The translations under genes were made by a program, and so were the position numbers. Positions 3,506-39,046 of a stretch of 39,611 nucleotides of DNA are shown one piece after another. The notes below the pieces were generated by a model that was not told the DNA's origin, searched no databases, and worked only from the letters and a program-made list of their open reading frames with translations. Every line of letters begins with the position of its first letter. The first letter of the stretch is position 1. Origin of the DNA: a bacterium (GTDB lineage Bacteria > Patescibacteriota > Minisyncoccia > Minisyncoccales > CG1-02-41-26); contig JAUWWY010000002.1 in the NCBI GenBank assembly GCA_030616605.1, positions 184,867 through 224,477 on the forward strand. Reading direction: 5' to 3'.

Positions 3506-3506
3506 G

Positions 3507-3590
3507 TGCCGGGGGAGGGACTCGAACCCTCAAGCTCTTGCGAGCAATGGATTTTGAATCCATCGTGTTTTCCGATTTCACCACCCCGGC
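3507..3590 (-). tRNA. tRNA-Leu(CAA)
   Basis: Minus strand GCCGGGG...atgga-ttCAAaa-tccat, long variable arm, GGTTCGAGTCC, CCCCGGC-A; CCA not encoded. Confidence 0.95.
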
Positions 3591-16833: not shown

Positions 16834-19539
16834 ATGCCATTTATTCAAGGGGGAGATTTTACCCACAAATCACAAGAAATAATGATTAAGGCTCAGACCG
16901 TTGCTAAAAATCACGGCCAACAGCAGATTGATGCTTTGCATCTTCTTCAGGCTCTTCTTGAAGAAGAAGAGAGTATTGTTTTAACATTGCTCAAAAATAC
17001 GGAGATTGATATAGAAGATTTAAAAAGAAAAACCCAAAAGGCAATTCTTCAAATTCCTTCTCTTTCTGACCCCCAAGTTACTGGTCAAATTTATCTTACA
17101 CAAGATTTAGCTCGGACCCTGGATAAAGCAAGGCAGGAGGCAATGAAAATGGGAGATGAATTTATTTCTATTGAACATTTATTTTTGGCTCTTTTAATGG
17201 TTAATACTGCAGCCCAAAAAGTTTTAGAAACTGCAAGATTTTTAGTTTCTAATGCTCCCGCTTCTTTAGATAGAGAAACTATTTTGAAACAACTTTCTGA
17301 GATTCGAGGTGGTGAAAGAGTTATTGATCCAAAACCAGAATCAAAATACGAAGTGGTTAAAAAATATACCAGAAACTTAACTGATTTAGCCAAGGATGGA
17401 AACATTGATCCGGTTATTGGCCGAGAATCAGAAATTAGAAGGTTAATGCAGGTTTTGTCCCGAAGAACAAAAAATAACCCGGTTTTAATCGGAGAAGCTG
17501 GAGTCGGCAAAACTGCAATTGTTGAGGGTTTGGCAAAAAAGATTACCACTTTAAATGTTCCAGAAAGTTTAGGAAAAAAGGAAATAATTGCTTTGGATTT
17601 AGGAGCTTTGGTTGCTGGTACAAAATACAGAGGAGAATTTGAGGCAAGAATTAAAGCTTTTTTGCGAGAATTAAAAAGAGCTAATGAGCAATATATTTTA
17701 TTTATTGATGAGCTTCATACTTTGGTTGGAGCTGGGGCAGCCGAAGGAGCAATTGATGCTTCAAATCTTTTAAAACCAGCTTTAGCAAAAGGGGAGCTTA
17801 GAGCAATTGGTGCTACCACTTTGAAAGAATATCAAAAATATATTGAAAAAGACCCGGCTTTAGAGAGAAGATTTCAGCCAATTTATGTTGCCGAACCTTC
17901 AATTGAAGATACACTTTCTATTTTACGGGGAATAAAAGAAAAGTATGAACTTCATCACGGAGTTAAAATTAAAGACGCAGCTCTTAAGACTGCTGTAGAA
18001 TTAAGTAATCGTTACATTACTGACAGATTTTTACCAGATAAAGCAATTGATTTGATGGATGAAGCAGCTTCGGTTTTAAGATTGGAGATAGAATCAGAAC
18101 CTTCAGAACTTGAAGAGCTCCGTAATCAAATTACCAAGCTGGAAATAGAAAAAGAGGCTTTAAAAAAAGAAAATTCACCCGGAGTGAACTCAAAAAGATT
18201 GAAGGTAATTGAAAGAAGTTTAGCTGACTTAAAAGAAAAAGCAAAAAGTTTGAAAGCTAAGTGGGATTCTGAAAAAGATTTAATTTTAAAAATTAAAAAC
18301 CTAAAAAGAGAGATTGATGACCTTTACTTTCAAATAGAAATTGTCCAGCGAGAAGGTGATTTGCAAAAGGTTGCTGAATTGACGTACGGTAAAATTCCAA
18401 GCTTAAAAAAAGAAACAAATCTTGCCGAAAAGAAATTGCGCGATCTTCAGAAAACGAGTCATCTCTTAAGGAAAGAGGTAACTGAAGAAGATATATCTCA
18501 GGTTGTTTCCCTTTGGACAGGAATTCCAGTGACAAGATTAATGGAGGGTGAAGCAAAAAAATTGGAAAAAATGGAGGAGATTTTGAAAAGGCGGGTTATT
18601 GGTCAGGACCAGGCAATTTTTATTGTTTCCAATGGTATCCGAAGAGGAAGAGCGGGGATTTCTGAAGAAAATCGGCCGATTGGTGTTTTCCTTTTTTTAG
18701 GACCAACAGGTGTCGGAAAAACCGAAACAGCCAAAGCTTTAGCTGGGTTTTTATTCAATACTGATAAGGCTCTTATCAGATTGGATATGTCAGAATACAT
18801 GGAAAAATACAGTGTTTCAAAGATAATCGGTTCTGCTCCGGGCTATGTCGGTTATGAGGAAGGAGGCCAATTAACCGAGAAAATTCGCCGGCGTCCTTAC
18901 AGCGTGGTATTGTTAGACGAGATTGAAAAGGCTGATACTGAAGTCTTTAATATTTTGTTACAAATTTTTGAAGACGGTAGATTAACCGATGCCAAAGGAA
19001 GAGAGGTTTCTTTCAAAAACACGATTATCATTATGACTTCTAATATTGGCTCAGAATATATTTCTGGAATGCAGACTTTAGGTTTTGAACAAAAAAGCGA
19101 GGAGAAAATATCCCAGACAAAACAGCTTAAAGACAAAGTTTATCAGAGCTTAAAAGAATTTTTTCGGCCCGAATTTTTGAACCGAATTGATGAAACCGTA
19201 ATATTCAATTATCTGGGTAAAAAAGAAATTAGAAAAATCGTTGATTTAGAATTAAAGAAAGTTAAAGAGAGATTGAGAAAAACAAAAGACATTAAAATTA
19301 GATTTTCCAAATCTTTAAAAGATAAGTTAGCCGAGCAAGGATTTGATCCAAATTTAGGGGCAAGACCTTTAAAAAGAATTATTCAGAAATTGATTCTTAA
19401 TCCTTTGTCTTTGAAAATCATAACTTTTCAGATTGAACCGGAAAGCAGAGTTTATGTTGATTTAGAAAAAGAAACAGTTGTCTTTCAAGTTTCTCAAGCT
19501 GTTTCTCAAAGAAAAAGGGAAGAAGCTTTAGTAAAATAA
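16834..19539 (+). CDS. clpB: ATP-dependent chaperone ClpB
   Basis: Clp N repeats, two AAA modules ([16 protein letters not shown]), long coiled-coil middle domain, GARPL. Confidence 0.92.
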
Positions 19540-19562
19540 TTGGTTTTTCAGATTGAAAAGGG

Positions 19563-19591
19563 TTGACAATCCTTTTCAAATTTGTTAATAT
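19563..19591 (+). promoter_or_regulatory. Sigma70-type promoter lying in a 13-bp inverted repeat
   Basis: TTGACA (19563-68), 17 nt, TGn-TAATAT (19586-91); ttgaaaagggttg-a-caatccttttcaa at 19553-19579. Confidence 0.65.
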
Positions 19592-19596
19592 TGAAA

Positions 19597-19684
19597 TTGT
19601 GAGGGTCAAATTCATCTTTTTAAGATGGATTTTCCAAAAGAGTCTGCGGAAGACCTCCTGGTAATTGGGAGGTCTTTTGCTTTT
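19597..19684 (+). ncRNA. Candidate small RNA 1, family unknown
   Basis: Downstream of a promoter; 11-bp hairpin 19608-19632 and terminator hairpin 19646-19680 plus TTTT; G-U pairs favour the + strand; no ORF. Confidence 0.5.
19646..19684 (+). terminator. Intrinsic terminator
   Basis: gcggaagacctcc-tggtaattg-ggaggtcttttgc-tttt. Confidence 0.75.
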
Positions 19685-19689
19685 AATAC

Positions 19690-19719
19690 TTGCCTTCTTG
19701 GGTAAAATTGGCATATAAT
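19690..19719 (+). promoter_or_regulatory. Sigma70-type promoter
   Basis: TTGCCT (19690-95), 18 nt, TATAAT (19714-19). Confidence 0.6.
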
Positions 19720-19724
19720 AAAAT

Positions 19725-19787
19725 TGGGTCGGGAGCAGGCCCTCACAAAAGACTTTGGAGGAAAAACCCTCCCGGCCCATTCCTTTT
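19725..19787 (+). ncRNA. Candidate small RNA 2 or structured murB leader
   Basis: 11-bp stem tgggtcgggag/ctcccggccca closing a 33-nt loop, followed by ttcctttt; begins about 6 nt after TATAAT. Confidence 0.5.
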
Positions 19788-19823
19788 CATTCGCAGTATT
19801 CGAATTTCATTCGCATTAATTTT

Positions 19824-20729
19824 ATGGAGTTTAAAAAAAATGTTCTGTTGAAAAATTATACCACCTTTAAAATTGGGGGAAGAGCAAAATATTTTTTAAA
19901 AGCAAAAACAAAAGAAGAACTAATTAAGGCAATTAAGATTGCTGAGCAAAAAAAATTGCCTTTTTTTATTTTGGGCAAAGGAAGTAATTTATTGGTTTCT
20001 GATAAAGGATTTAATGGATTGGTAATAAAAATAGAAACTAGAGACTACAAACTAGAAACTGACAAAATTTATGCCCAGGCCGGAATAGAACTAGCCCAAA
20101 TAGTAGATTTTGTGGCAAAAAAATCGCTTACTGGTTTAGAATGGGCAAAAGGGATTCCCGGAACAATAGGAGGAGCTATTTTTGGAAATGCTGCTGCTTT
20201 TAAAAATTCAATAGGAAATTTTATTGAAGAAGTAGAATGTCTTGAGATTGAACCCTCTTTAAAGGTTCAACCCCCCAAAATTAGAATCTTCAATAATAAA
20301 GATTGTGAGTTTAACTTCAAAGATAGCATTTTTAAAAAAAACAAAAATCTCATAATTCTCGCTTGTATAATTCAGCTAAAAAAAGGAGACAAGAAAGAGA
20401 TTAAAAAAAAGATGAAATATTTTTTAAATTATAGAAAAAGAAGTCAACCTTTAAAATTTCCCTCAGCTGGCTGTGTGTTTAAAAACCCCCTTAGAATTCC
20501 GACAGCAGAATTAATTGATAAATCTGGCTTAAAAGGGAGAAAAATTGGCAGAGCCATGATTTCCAAGAAGCATGCGAATTTTATTATCAATCTGGGAGGG
20601 GCTGAGGCAAAAGACGTTTTAAAACTGATTAATTTAATAAAAAAAGAAGTCAAAGAGAAATTTAGAATTGAACTTGAAGAAGAAATATCAAAAGTAGGGG
20701 TTGACATCTCTTCTTATAATTTGGAATAA
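19824..20729 (+). CDS. murB: UDP-N-acetylenolpyruvoylglucosamine reductase
   Basis: YTTFKIGG.A, LGKGSNLLV.D, GIPGTIGGA, PSAGCVFKNP, SKKHANFIIN, LEEEI; start at MEFKK. Confidence 0.95.
   Translation: MEFKKNVLLKNYTTFKIGGRAKYFLKAKTKEELIKAIKIAEQKKLPFFILGKGSNLLVSDKGFNGLVIKIETRDYKLETDKIYAQAGIELAQIVDFVAKKSLTGLEWAKGIPGTIGGAIFGNAAAFKNSIGNFIEEVECLEIEPSLKVQPPKIRIFNNKDCEFNFKDSIFKKNKNLIILACIIQLKKGDKKEIKKKMKYFLNYRKRSQPLKFPSAGCVFKNPLRIPTAELIDKSGLKGRKIGRAMISKKHANFIINLGGAEAKDVLKLINLIKKEVKEKFRIELEEEISKVGVDISSYNLE
20032..20060 (+). repeat. Degenerate 7-bp tandem repeat in murB
   Basis: tagaaac tagagac tacaaac tagaaac; one unit matches the pth repeat read on its coding strand. Confidence 0.75.
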
Positions 20730-33417: not shown

Positions 33418-33778
33418 AAGTTCAAGTAGGCAAGGCAACCGCCCTTTACCTTTAGTTAAAGGTGAAGGGAGGAAAGTCCGAACACTCATTCCATTTGGTC
33501 TAAAAAAGTAGCGGGTAACACCCGTCGCTAGTAATGGTAGAGGTGCGAACAGAGACGTGCGAGGCCGAAAGGCCGAGCACCCCGTCGAATGACGGGGCAG
33601 TCCTCGAGTAATCGAGGGGTGAAACGGCTAAATCCTTACTGGGTGCAAGAAGAAACTCTTTGGACATTCTCCGGATTTGCCCAAAGAGAAAAAGTGCTTC
33701 GCTAGAGCCAAGGAGTAATCTTTGGCCCAGATAAATGGTTGTCCTCGACAGAATTCGGCTTATTGCCTGCTTGAACTT
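33418..33778 (+). ncRNA. rnpB: RNase P RNA
   Basis: GAGGAAAGTCCG and ACAGAATTCGGCTTA (P4), GTGCGAACAGA, GGTGAAAC, GGGTGCAAG; terminal helix aagttcaagtaggcaa/ttgcctgcttgaactt. Confidence 0.96.
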
Positions 33779-36060: not shown

Positions 36061-36134
36061 GCGGGGTTAGTTGATCGGTTCAACGTAACCTTCCCAAGGT
36101 TGAGAGGCGGGTTCGACTCCCGTACCCCGCTCCA
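36061..36134 (+). tRNA. tRNA-Gly(CCC)
   Basis: GCGGGGT...taacc-ttCCCaa-ggttg...GGTTCGACTCC...ACCCCGC-T-CCA. Confidence 0.95.
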
Positions 36135-36157
36135 GTTTACACTGAGCTTGTTGAAGT
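36134..36157 (+). repeat. tRNA 5' leader repeat, copy 2
   Basis: agtttacactgag-cttgt-tgaagt directly before tRNA-Thr. Confidence 0.75.
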
Positions 36158-36229
36158 GCCGGAGTAACTCAGTGGTAGAGTAGCTATCTCGTAAATAGCA
36201 AGTCGTGGGTTCGATTCCCCCCTCCGGCT
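36158..36229 (+). tRNA. tRNA-Thr(CGT)
   Basis: GCCGGAG...gctat-ctCGTaa-atagc...GGTTCGATTCC...CTCCGGC-T; CCA not encoded. Confidence 0.94.
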
Positions 36230-36249
36230 CAAATAAAATTTTGTATAAA

Positions 36250-38972: not shown

Positions 38973-39046
38973 TGCGGGGTGGTGTAATGGTAGCACTCGA
39001 GATTCTGGCTCTCGTAATCTAGGTTCGAATCCTAGCCCCGCAGCCA
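38973..39046 (+). tRNA. tRNA-Gln(CTG)
   Basis: TGCGGGG...cgaga-ttCTGgc-tctcg...GGTTCGAATCC...CCCCGCA-G-CCA. Confidence 0.95.

Follow-up and report, generated by a model that had tools for sequence, protein, structure and literature searches.

The T-box leader (RF00230) captures tRNA through two base-pairing contacts and so sets the expression of the gene downstream. Four-way junctions between a small RNA and a leader hairpin are formed by CopA-CopT of plasmid R1 and by related antisense systems. OxyS and fhlA form a two-site kissing complex, and other trans-encoded sRNAs also have bipartite target sites. SreA of Listeria is a terminated riboswitch leader that also acts in trans. The Patescibacteria (CPR) have tiny genomes with few recognisable regulators, and to our knowledge almost nothing is known about RNA-based regulation in these bacteria.

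The locus described here, from an ultra-small bacterium of the Patescibacteria type, contains the genes of two small RNAs, RNA1 and RNA2, which probably constitute a previously undescribed RNA-on-RNA control device. RNA2 resembles a T-box in being a putative leader with a terminator-like hairpin that is bound at two contacts by a separately transcribed, structured RNA, and the control of the downstream gene is predicted here. However, the effector of the T-box is tRNA, whereas RNA1 is not a tRNA and RNA2 has neither a T-box sequence nor an Rfam match. Neither contact of RNA1 overlaps the terminator stem of RNA2, and RNA1 is apparently dedicated to one leader, beside which it is usually encoded. 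As in CopA-CopT, the predicted complex is not a single long duplex but a stable junction of several helices, and it is four-way here when hairpin P of RNA1 is present. CopA and CopT are cis-antisense RNAs from opposite strands of the same DNA, which makes their complementarity automatic, whereas RNA1 and RNA2 have separate genes, mostly in tandem. Therefore, the complementarity of RNA1 and RNA2 requires compensatory mutation, as is observed. Unlike CopA-CopT of plasmid R1, the RNA1/RNA2 module is chromosomal and precedes a cell-wall gene. Like the sRNA OxyS, RNA1 is encoded in trans, has a promoter and a terminator of its own and would bind an mRNA leader through two helices of 7–15 bp. In contrast to the OxyS-fhlA complex, the two sites in RNA2 share a single closed loop and are permuted in order, so that an intermolecular pseudoknot would result; a scan of the source genome revealed a single bipartite site, the two RNAs co-evolve across the entire order, and they occur in genomes with very few known regulators. 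RNA2 is a putative short leader ending at its own hairpin and, like SreA, could be both a free small RNA and the 5′ part of an mRNA. It differs from SreA in having no known ligand or aptamer family, and its conserved partner is another RNA.

Layout of the two RNA genes

The window, which is the whole stretch of 39,611 nucleotides that was analysed, contains RNA1, RNA2 and murB in this order on the forward strand:

19563..19591, + strand: RNA1 promoter (TTGACA, 17 nt, TAATAT, with TG before the −10 box; promoter scan)
19599..19686, + strand: RNA1, a small RNA of about 88 nt composed of arm a, hairpin P, arm b and a terminator (CM match at 19599–19685, 66.6 bits)
19599..19607, + strand: RNA1 arm a, GUGAGGGUC, the 5′-terminal nucleotides, pairing with 19738–19746 to form helix A
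19608..19633, + strand: RNA1 hairpin P, an optional and variable arm, here of 11 bp (fold)
19633..19645, + strand: RNA1 arm b, UCCAAAAGAGUCU, pairing with 19750–19759 to form helix B
19646..19686, + strand: RNA1 intrinsic terminator, with 16 pairs at 19646–19680 followed by TTTT (terminator scan)
19690..19719, + strand: RNA2 promoter (TTGCCT, 18 nt, TATAAT; promoter scan)
19726..19781, + strand: RNA2, a stem-loop of about 55 nt and predicted 5′ leader of murB (CM match at 19725–19781, 71.9 bits)
19726–19735 with 19769–19778, + strand: RNA2 closing stem S, the loop of which carries a′ and b′ (fold, covariation)
19738..19746, + strand: RNA2 a′, GGCCCUCAC, partner of RNA1 arm a
19750..19762, + strand: RNA2 b′, AGACUUUGGAGG, partner of RNA1 arm b
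19824..20729, + strand: murB, UDP-N-acetylenolpyruvoylglucosamine reductase (Pfam MurB_C and FAD_binding_4)

Both RNA promoters are of the sigma-70 type and near consensus. An earlier note, made from the letters of this DNA, had given RNA1 its own promoter and terminator and RNA2 its own promoter, and the scans located all three elements. Comparison of the upstream regions showed a TTGACA...TAAnAT arrangement 6–8 nt before GTGAG in nearly all RNA1 homologues, and a TAnAAT-type −10 box is kept at a fixed distance before the RNA2 stem in all homologues. Based on the promoter spacing and the homologues, the 5′ end of RNA1 is most likely G19599. The promoter scan found no promoter-like site between 19720 and 19824, and stem S is separated from the murB start by 45 nt. 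Hairpin P and the terminator of RNA1 and stem S of RNA2 all appear in the predicted fold (z = −4.58; none of 200 shuffles was as good), and in free RNA2 the GAGG of b′ is predicted to be able to pair with the CCUC of a′. Hairpin P varies greatly in length between homologues, from 0 to about 100 nt, and UUCG or GNRA loops are common; the pairs of G012 and G055 are examples without it, with approximately 25 + 55 nt. Two reading frames were considered and rejected, since neither is conserved in homologues as judged by eye: a small ORF of 21 codons starting at the 5′ GUG of RNA1, and a frame running from RNA2 into murB (19755..20729). The window also contains an RNase P RNA, which was identified by the Rfam search.

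The segments 19597–19607 (TTGTGAGGGTC) and 19738–19748 (GGCCCTCACAA) form 11 antiparallel pairs, one of them G-U, as the earlier note had described. The two U-A pairs at 19597–98 are probably untranscribed because of the likely RNA1 start at G19599, and helix A in the window consists of nine contiguous pairs from arm a (19599..19607). The second complementarity is exactly as claimed, with 19633–19645 (TCCAAAAGAGTCT) and 19750–19759 (AGACTTTGGA) forming 4 + 6 pairs around a 3-nt bulge. The GC stem that closes the loop of RNA2 was also found, with 10 bp and possibly two more beyond a bulge, instead of the 11 bp previously counted. The summed duplex energy of the two sites is −33.7 kcal/mol; shuffled controls never reached this value, whether the RNA1 core (1000 dinucleotide shuffles) or the RNA2 loop (1000 shuffles) was randomised.

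Distribution and covariation of the pair

The CM of RNA2 matched 49 of the 61 genomes of the order, once in each, and that of RNA1 matched 46; both genes are single-copy. The RNA1-like gene of genome G050 had no RNA2 partner that could be found by pattern or CM. The comparison set comprises 45 cognate RNA1/RNA2 pairs, each from one genome. The module is missing from five murB-bearing genomes of the order, two of which are 99–100% complete. Among 151 genomes of the phylum, the RNA2 CM found only the four members of the order and one weak match (E = 5e-4). No match with the RNA1 or RNA2 model was found at seven murB loci that were judged to lie outside the order by their lower identity (titled Patescibacteria or Paceibacterota, plus one untitled uncultured bacterium), and inspection by eye of murB loci L166 and L174, outside the order, revealed no comparable leader.

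The two genes are arranged in tandem on one strand in 30 of the 45 pairs, with at most 270 nt from the start of RNA1 to the end of RNA2. The other 15 pairs do not form a compact same-strand tandem, and the pairing is kept in every one of them. In seven of these, 0.9–2.2 kb of DNA with other genes separates RNA1 and RNA2, and three more (G022, G035 and G041) have a tandem that is only slightly more widely spaced. Of the remaining five, three are convergent, one is divergent and one is divided between two contigs. A single long clpB-murB transcript, which the earlier note had weighed, is unnecessary, since some genomes have 1–2 kb between the two genes, or have them on opposite strands or separate contigs. 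No protein gene is conserved alongside RNA1 and RNA2, and the intervening genes differ among genomes. A protein partner encoded between the two RNAs was rejected because the ORFs there are unrelated, for example a DegT-like protein and a multi-pass membrane protein, which at a guess is an EamA-type transporter. An invertible switch was rejected for the three inverted RNA2 cassettes, which have no flanking inverted repeats beyond stem S itself.

Many compensatory changes have preserved the two intermolecular helices in the 45 cognate pairs, with examples such as GCGAG:CUCGC, GUGGG:CCCAC, AUGAGGA:UCCUCAU and GUGUAAGUG:CACUUACAC. Helix A has 5–11 contiguous pairs from nucleotide 1 of RNA1 across the genomes. 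Its first seven positions are paired in 305 of 315 cells, compared to 85–169 of 315 when the partner is slid by 1–2 nt. Position 6 is U-A in 19, G-C in 17 and C-G in two of the pairs, and position 7 is G-C in 24 and A-U in 14. The mean number of contiguous base pairs in helix A is 8.0 for cognate and 5.8 for non-cognate partners, and the mean energy of helix B is −16.0 and −10.2 kcal/mol, respectively. Each of the two cognate means was reached by none of 10,000 partner permutations, a figure that overstates the significance, as do those from shuffling, because the genomes are related and not independent. The per-position table of helix B is noisy, since the automatic anchoring sometimes fell inside hairpin P, and the evidence for helix B therefore consists of the energies and a structure-pair count. 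This count, performed on the 30 adjacent RNA1/RNA2 pairs, found 91.6% of cells paired, compared to 38–54% when slid, and two-sided changes in 28 of 38 base pairs; the observed values were reached by none of 500 shuffles. In the same 30 pairs, helix A is 95.2% and the proximal part of helix B 93.4% paired, and two-sided changes occur in nine of the 11 pairs of the RNA1 terminator stem and in nine of the ten pairs of the RNA2 stem S. Helix B is shortened in concert in both partners in G021, G055 and G056. Almost no variation occurs in the cores GUGAG/CUCAC and CUCC/GGAG, a constancy that exceeds the needs of pairing, and the junction nucleotides of RNA1 are not conserved among homologues.

The main proposal of the earlier note, that two separately transcribed RNAs assemble into a junction in trans through the permuted pairing of their unpaired segments, is strongly supported by the 45 genome-matched pairs, and the complementarity, the loss of which in homologues would have counted against it, is retained. 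RNA1 has its own promoter and intrinsic terminator, a gene apart from that of its target, and intermolecular pairing with compensatory changes, which are the properties of a trans-encoded sRNA.

Comparison with known RNA families

The Infernal search with Rfam 15 assigned no family to the locus: in the region 19540–19830 there was no match at gathering score. The best sub-threshold match was rpsL_ricks (28.4 bits with a cut-off of 60, E = 0.31), which fits mainly the generic shape of a hairpin plus terminator. The absence of tRNA, tmRNA, SRP RNA and 6S RNA hallmarks, which had been remarked on before, was borne out by the Rfam, ARAGORN and protein searches. We give next to no credence to a divergent or split housekeeping RNA (SRP RNA, 6S RNA or two-piece tmRNA) or a T-box-type leader. 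A replacement of the SRP RNA was attractive at first, as the small-SRP RNA is undetectable in the source genome and in the whole sampled phylum: the families RF00169 and RF01854 had no match in the source genome at E ≤ 10, and SRP RNA was found in none of 61 genomes of the order and none of 151 of the phylum. However, neither Ffh nor FtsY is present in the genome, and the pair is therefore not an SRP RNA or its replacement. PF02978 and PF00448 had no match in the source genome, PF00448 detected only P-loop scraps across 41 genomes of the order and nothing at 1e-10 in 101 genomes of the phylum, and E. coli Ffh compared by tblastn with the whole source genome gave a best E of 0.85. A published study (PMC4508563) already describes the loss of ffh and ffs in Parcubacteria. 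The motif AGCAGG of RNA2, which is slightly SRP-like, is not conserved in homologues.

The other families were rejected on similar grounds. ARAGORN found no two-piece (permuted) tmRNA at the locus, and a standard one-piece tmRNA is located elsewhere in the genome (contig C4:160606–160951, 148.8 bits with RF00023). The 6S RNA family (RF00013) had no match at the locus and only a weak one elsewhere on the contig (E = 2), and the fold of the pair is a junction and not a rod. A T-box leader would have been expected to give an Rfam match, which was not obtained, and RNA1 is not a tRNA according to ARAGORN. A cis-antisense pair of the CopA/CopT type does not agree with genes that are non-overlapping and mostly in tandem on one strand. 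Nothing was found in favour of a guide/target pair, one of the readings offered by the earlier note: no variable guide-like segment, as in a crRNA:tracrRNA-type pair, is apparent in the RNA1/RNA2 alignments, and the scan of the source genome for exact 7-mer matches showed no sign of a second target. The literature listings contained no account of the RNA1/RNA2 pair or of a murB leader.

RNA2 upstream of murB and possible function of the pair

A new observation is that, in 42 of 49 genomes, RNA2 immediately precedes murB and has the same orientation; it adjoins murB in any orientation in 45 of 49. The gap between RNA2 and murB is 5–180 nt in the 30 loci in which it was measured and at most 27 nt in 12 of these. 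Because of this same-strand position upstream, often 5–27 nt from the start codon, RNA2 is the predicted 5′ leader of murB. RNA2 is probably also a leaky intrinsic terminator. The 8 nt after stem S contain 4.4 T on average, compared to approximately 2.6 expected in a genome with 32% T, with at least five T in 24 and at most two T in nine of the 49 copies. In some genomes, an additional hairpin-plus-U terminator, or room for a separate promoter, is located between RNA2 and murB. It is the position that makes RNA2 an mRNA leader, and it does not hold in G054, G059 and four unlinked cases. In G054 and G059, RNA2 is inverted in place and convergent with RNA1, and the pairing persists there with compensatory changes specific to the lineage (in G054, GUGGG:CCCAC plus a helix B of 13–14 bp). 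In G008, G019, G022 and G031, RNA2 has no linkage to murB or a murB gene was not detected, and the pairing is kept there as well. In G019, the two RNAs are on different contigs and the murB pieces contain stop codons, and in G022, a 93%-complete genome in which murB was not found, the pairing is AUGAGGAUCA:UGGUCCUCAU. The GGAG of RNA2 was rejected as the Shine-Dalgarno sequence of murB, as it is too far from the start codon. An SD-like core accompanies only 46 of the 378 long ORFs of the source genome, counted with crude start calls, and the lack of an SD sequence at murB is therefore uninformative.

Based on the position of RNA2 and the covariation of the helices, a mechanism can be proposed in which RNA1, as an sRNA acting in trans and dedicated to this leader, clamps the loop of RNA2 into a three- or four-way junction and thereby tunes murB. 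We regard this mechanism as having about an even chance of being correct. A lineage-specific two-RNA control module would have been inserted in front of murB. RNA2 would be transcribed from its own strong promoter and start directly with the GC-rich stem S of 10–12 bp, which would close a loop of about 33 nt. Downstream of stem S there would be a U-rich stretch, with the start codon of murB as little as 5 nt away. The 5′-terminal GUGAG.. of RNA1 and a second, CUCCAUUCUUAGUC-like single-stranded segment would each pair with one of two neighbouring segments in the loop of RNA2. With the paired segments in the same 5′-to-3′ order in both RNAs, the complex would be an intermolecular pseudoknot equivalent to a three-way junction, or a four-way junction where hairpin P is present, as the earlier note had foreseen. 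RNA1 may splint the ends of the loop together and change the ease with which stem S forms, or the fate of the leader, and its binding may thereby set the transcription or translation that reaches murB. Our guess as to the direction is that bound RNA1 lowers murB by favouring stem S, and with it termination. The source genome contains 20 exact CCCTCAC sites, and only that in RNA2 has a strong second site (−13.4, compared to −7.4 for the next best). RNA1 likely has a single target, as this was the only bipartite site found in the source genome by a scan for exact 7-mer matches, which misses weaker targets.

Among the three readings of the earlier note, an sRNA controlling the murB leader fits best, on the basis of the leader position of RNA2 in 42 of 49 genomes, and the split ncRNA is retained as a rival. 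The absence of the module from five murB-bearing genomes means that a regulator fits better than an essential RNA. However, neither helix A nor helix B competes with stem S, and there is therefore no obvious terminator/antiterminator switch. Control of murB is also at odds with the persistence of the pairing in genomes that leave RNA2 no way of acting on murB in cis. RNA1 and RNA2 could instead be a self-contained two-piece RNA, the function of which resides in the heterodimer itself. They could, for example, serve as a scaffold to which a protein binds, assemble in trans into a fold that binds a ligand or is catalytic, or be an sRNA and its dedicated sponge, and murB would merely be co-transcribed by read-through owing to its place behind the two genes. 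We consider this unlikely, if worth serious attention. It agrees with the survival of lineage-specific double changes where RNA2 is no leader (G054, G059, G022 and G019), with single-copy genes under near-consensus promoters, with cores more invariant than pairing demands and with the A-rich linkers of RNA2, such linkers being typical of compact pseudoknots. It has difficulty in accounting for the 45 of 49 RNA2 genes that are adjacent to murB, the leader orientation being found in 42 and the distance often being 5–27 nt. The unconserved junction nucleotides of RNA1 and the optional hairpin P argue against a ligand pocket or catalytic core, no conserved protein gene stands beside the module, and the module is dispensable, being absent from the five genomes and from the examined Patescibacteria murB loci outside the order. 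Less probable still, RNA1 and RNA2 might be obligate halves of one structured RNA that exists only after assembly in trans and has a function beyond murB control. Assembly of the halves, probably during transcription and ahead of the closing of stem S, would yield an intermolecular pseudoknot that is topologically locked and that could act as a trans-assembled sensor (split riboswitch) or a scaffold for a protein, which would explain why the pairing survives with RNA2 inverted or murB missing.

Read-through from the RNA1 promoter across RNA2 into murB, with the helices forming an intramolecular, riboswitch-like pseudoknot and the internal promoter being secondary, would suit the compact tandem units of at most 270 nt in 30 of the 45 pairs and the order a-b-a′-b′, which is that of an H-type pseudoknot. 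Such a cis-acting leader is very improbable, since RNA1 ends in a strong, co-varying terminator of 16 pairs and a U-tract, the −10 box of RNA2 is present at a fixed distance in all homologues, and the pairing is kept in all 15 pairs lacking the compact arrangement.

As a control module for murB, RNA1 and RNA2 would represent a comparatively validated dedicated sRNA and its partner, the sites and geometry of which can be read from covariation alone in about 50 genera. The partner of RNA1 would be the leader of a gene for a step in peptidoglycan precursor synthesis. The predicted architecture is unusual, since a single closed loop accommodates two helices in permuted order, resulting in an intermolecular pseudoknot or three-/four-way junction. 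With approximately 55 + 60–90 nt, the module is of a size that suits biochemical and structural study and could be reused as an orthogonal RNA-RNA switch. In G025, an inverted RNA2 is located 6 nt before a DegT-family gene, which is another envelope gene.

The two transcription units between clpB and murB

The interval between clpB and murB contains two small transcription units, both on the forward strand. The first unit, which encodes RNA1, comprises a promoter, seven bases, GUGAGGGUC, the 11-bp hairpin P, UCCAAAAGAGUCU, and a terminator. In the second unit, which encodes RNA2, the promoter is directly followed by stem S. The loop closed by S contains GGCCCUCAC, complementary to the 5′ end of RNA1 (helix A), and, past an A-rich linker, AGACUUUGGA, complementary to the second free segment of RNA1 (helix B). 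The earlier note had placed both RNAs and their complementarities, and all of its coordinates agree with the window sequence.

Features of the window
3506-3590, 36061-36230, 38973-39046: four tRNA genes, Leu-CAA, Gly-CCC, Thr-CGU and Gln-CUG
16834-19539: clpB, upstream of both small RNA units
19563-19591, + strand: RNA1 promoter, near-consensus TTGACA-17-TAATAT (promoter scan)
19646-19686, + strand: RNA1 terminator, 16 pairs and a U-tract
19690-19719, + strand: RNA2 promoter, TTGCCT-18-TATAAT (promoter scan)
19726-35 with 19769-78, + strand: stem S of RNA2, 10 bp, GC-rich, closing a loop of ~33 nt
19824-20729: murB, Pfam MurB_C and FAD_binding_4
33423-33777: RNase P RNA class A, 137 bits

A 12-pair hairpin (TTGAAAAGGG..CCTTTTCAA) at 19553-19579, overlapping the -35 box of the RNA1 promoter, is probably the clpB terminator. 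Between RNA2 and the murB start codon, TTCATTCGCA forms an exact 10-nt direct repeat (19786-19795 and 19806-19815, 20 nt apart), which might be a candidate protein-binding site.

Pairing between RNA1 and RNA2

The duplex energies of the two sites in the window sum to -33.7 kcal/mol, a value reached by 0/1000 dinucleotide shuffles of either partner. The complementarity is retained in homologues, with compensatory changes in both helices, among 45 genome-matched RNA1/RNA2 pairs from fetched loci searched without filters. Helix A starts from the first nucleotide of RNA1 and has 5-11 contiguous pairs. Standard pairs occupy 305 of the 315 cells of its first seven positions, as opposed to 85-169 after a 1-2-nt shift of the partner. 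At position 6, 19 pairs have U-A, 17 have G-C and 2 have C-G; at position 7, 24 have G-C and 14 have A-U. Rare double changes lie even inside the near-invariant core, namely GCGAG:CUCGC in G055, GUGGG:CCCAC in G054, AUGAGGA:UCCUCAU in G022 and GUGUAAGUG:CACUUACAC in G021, all genomes of the same order. Helix B, with the consensus CUCCAUUCUUAGUC in RNA1 and GACUUAGAAUUGGAG in RNA2, varies in length and internal bulges, and is shortened jointly in both partners in three genomes (G021, G055, G056).

Cognate partners form on average 8.0 contiguous base pairs in helix A and -16.0 kcal/mol in helix B, whereas non-cognate partners form 5.8 and -10.2 kcal/mol. For either helix 0/10000 partner permutations reach the cognate mean. 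As an independent check, 30 tandem pairs were aligned as single stretches and counted against a structure in pseudoknot-bracket notation: paired cells make up 91.6% (95.2% in helix A, 93.4% in proximal helix B) versus 38-54% when slid, and 28 of 38 pairs show changes on both sides. These values are reached by 0/500 shuffles; the genomes are related, so the permutation and shuffle figures overstate independence, and the variety of pair types is unaffected by kinship. Based on these sequence comparisons, the RNA1:RNA2 pairing is real.

Segments a and b of RNA1 and their partners in RNA2 occur in the same order, which makes the complex an intermolecular pseudoknot. Hairpin P ranges from absent to ~100 nt, frequently with UUCG or GNRA loops. 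P is thus an optional fourth arm on a core three-way junction formed by S, A and B; the four-way junction in trans proposed in the earlier note holds where P is present. At one locus (G042:C11, L133 37-194), a ~100-nt hairpin insertion replaces P, and arms a and b still match their own RNA2.

Gene arrangement, the murB leader and its possible control

RNA1 and RNA2 are tandem neighbours in 30 of the 45 pairs. Seven pairs are 0.9-2.2 kb apart with unrelated genes between them (G011, G026, G032, G038, G042, G049, G056), and three are in same-strand tandem with slightly wider spacing (G022, G035, G041). The remaining pairs are divergent (G002), convergent (G025, G054, G059) or on different contigs (G019). 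Pairing is intact in all 15 non-compact arrangements. The RNA1 terminator co-varies, and RNA2 homologues have their own -10 box at a fixed distance. We conclude that RNA1 and RNA2 are two genes, not one transcript. The spacer has repeatedly acquired unrelated genes (G011, L113; G038, L130; G049, L137; G056, L140), on either strand, including a DegT-like aminotransferase, a multi-pass membrane protein, which we guess to be an EamA-type transporter, and other ORFs.

The coordinates of RNA2 were set against those of MurB in 49 RNA2-bearing genomes. The murB gene lies directly downstream on the same strand in 42; RNA2 adjoins murB in inverted orientation in three (G025, G054, G059), and is unlinked from murB, or no murB was found, in four. 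In two of the latter, murB is on another contig (G008, G019), with stop codons in the murB pieces of G019, and no murB was found in G022 and G031. The gap from S to the murB start codon is 5-180 nt, and at most 27 nt in 12 of the 30 loci with a located start codon. Such short gaps cannot hold a promoter, and a promoter scan found none in the 45-nt gap of the window; by its position, RNA2 therefore forms the physical 5′ leader of murB in the majority of genomes. On average, 4.4 of the 8 nt that follow S are T, against ~2.6 expected from base composition (≥5 in 24 of 49 genomes, ≤2 in nine). Because of this T excess, S looks like a leaky intrinsic terminator in many genomes.

In-place inversion of the cassette of RNA2 and its promoter is seen in three genomes, each from a different family (G025:C1:38339-40645, L124; G054:C4, L139 295-520; G059:C49, L143 207-400), and no flanking inverted repeats were found. 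In G025 the inverted RNA2 lies 6 nt before a DegT-family aminotransferase gene, where murB would otherwise follow. In four relatives the same gene is found on the opposite strand in the spacer that separates the two RNAs, so the leader seems to have been redirected to a different envelope gene. The inverted copies of G054 and G059 extend into the terminator region of RNA1 and precede no gene. In the source genome, GGAG, GAGG or AGGA is present within 20 nt upstream of the first ATG in 46 of 378 ORFs of at least 200 aa, with starts assigned crudely, which suggests weak Shine-Dalgarno use.

Free RNA2 is predicted to fold into a rod, with CCUC of a′ paired to GAGG of b′. The fourth pair of this inner stem is either C-G or A-U and follows the change in helix A; the pattern has essentially two states and counts as weak evidence. 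On binding of RNA1, the inner stem would open and give way to helices A and B. If the loop were already closed, more than one turn of helix B could form only by threading, so assembly likely takes place on the nascent RNA2, ahead of the closure of S. Both helices lie clear of S, and a classical competition between terminator and antiterminator is therefore not evident. We propose a splint function for RNA1: its short linker or hairpin P would tie helices A and B together at their junction-side ends, which would hold both strands of S close, and speed or stabilise closure just as the polymerase arrives at the U-stretch. Both RNAs would have their 5′ ends buried in helices. The outcome may be a change, in either direction, in read-through into murB, or in the stability or translation of murB mRNA, which has its start codon just behind S.

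We give about an even chance to control of murB by RNA1 through the RNA2 leader. A regulatory role fits the absence of the module from five genomes of the order that have murB (99-100% complete in two cases), the single bipartite RNA1 site in the source genome (RNA2, among 20 exact 7-mer matches), and the finding that the pair has no conserved protein gene as a companion when intervening genes are compared across genomes. The system belongs in kind with the trans-encoded sRNAs that have a leader target. It departs from them in its two-helix permuted clamp in one closed loop, its obligate co-evolving single partner, and its CPR setting. A literature search for the RNA pair or a murB leader found no relevant paper. 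The pairing, with lineage-specific compensatory changes, is also kept where cis action of RNA2 on murB is impossible (G054, G059, G019, G022), and the cores of both helices are nearly invariant in sequence. The heterodimer may therefore have a function of its own, and such a self-contained two-piece RNA is a possible, if doubtful, explanation. A single cis leader is improbable given the separable genes, the -10 box of RNA2 and the co-varying RNA1 terminator.

A known housekeeping RNA family is hardly credible. No family was recognised at the locus: at gathering thresholds, the only Rfam matches in the window were the RNase P RNA and the four tRNAs, relaxed thresholds over 19450-19900 gave only sub-threshold chance matches, and ARAGORN found no tRNA or tmRNA at the RNA1/RNA2 locus. 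A normal tmRNA and an RNase P RNA are present in the source genome. SRP RNA (RF00169, RF01854) was undetectable there, as well as in the 61 genomes of the order and the 151-genome phylum sample, and we therefore tested whether the RNA pair replaces it. This was rejected because the SRP protein partners are absent. The SRP54 M and GTPase domains are missing from the source genome, E. coli Ffh had no tblastn match in the whole assembly (best E 0.85), and PF00448 gave nothing but P-loop scraps in 41 genomes of the order and matched 0/101 genomes of the phylum sample at 1e-10. In agreement, Nelson & Stegen (2015, PMC4508563) had reported finding neither ffh nor ffs in Parcubacteria. Our searches suggest that the loss spans the whole sampled phylum, FtsY included.

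Distribution across the order

A BLAST-type search of 60 relatives found the RNA2 segment at 73-89% identity in more than 20 genomes. Covariance models were built from 24 RNA2 sequences (R1) and 16 RNA1 sequences (R2). R1 matches 49 of 61 genomes of the order, exactly once each, and R2 matches 46. In a phylum sample of 151 genomes, R1 matches only the four members of the order, and one more sequence weakly. Neither model matches at seven murB loci, which are titled as Patescibacteria or Paceibacterota apart from one untitled uncultured bacterium and which, judging by their lower identity, probably lie outside the order; in two of them (L166, L174) no comparable leader was seen by eye. Within reach of these models, the element appears specific to one order.

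One 96%-complete genome contains an RNA1-like gene (G050:C8:20990-21061, L154 111-182) composed of a promoter, GUGAGGGCG, a hairpin, CUCCACUAAGUC and a terminator; no RNA2 is detectable anywhere in this genome, and a different small hairpin follows the gene behind a TATAAT box. The gene upstream of RNA1 in six genomes (G001, G003, G006, G017, G045, G054) shares a C-terminal ..NP.W.. motif with the gene upstream of murB at L166; the G054 and L166 sequences, read by eye, look like a TPR-type repeat protein. At L166, a Paceibacterota locus with neither RNA, the ..NP.W.. gene immediately precedes murB, so the RNA pair seems to have been inserted between these two genes, in an intergenic region that is older than the pair.
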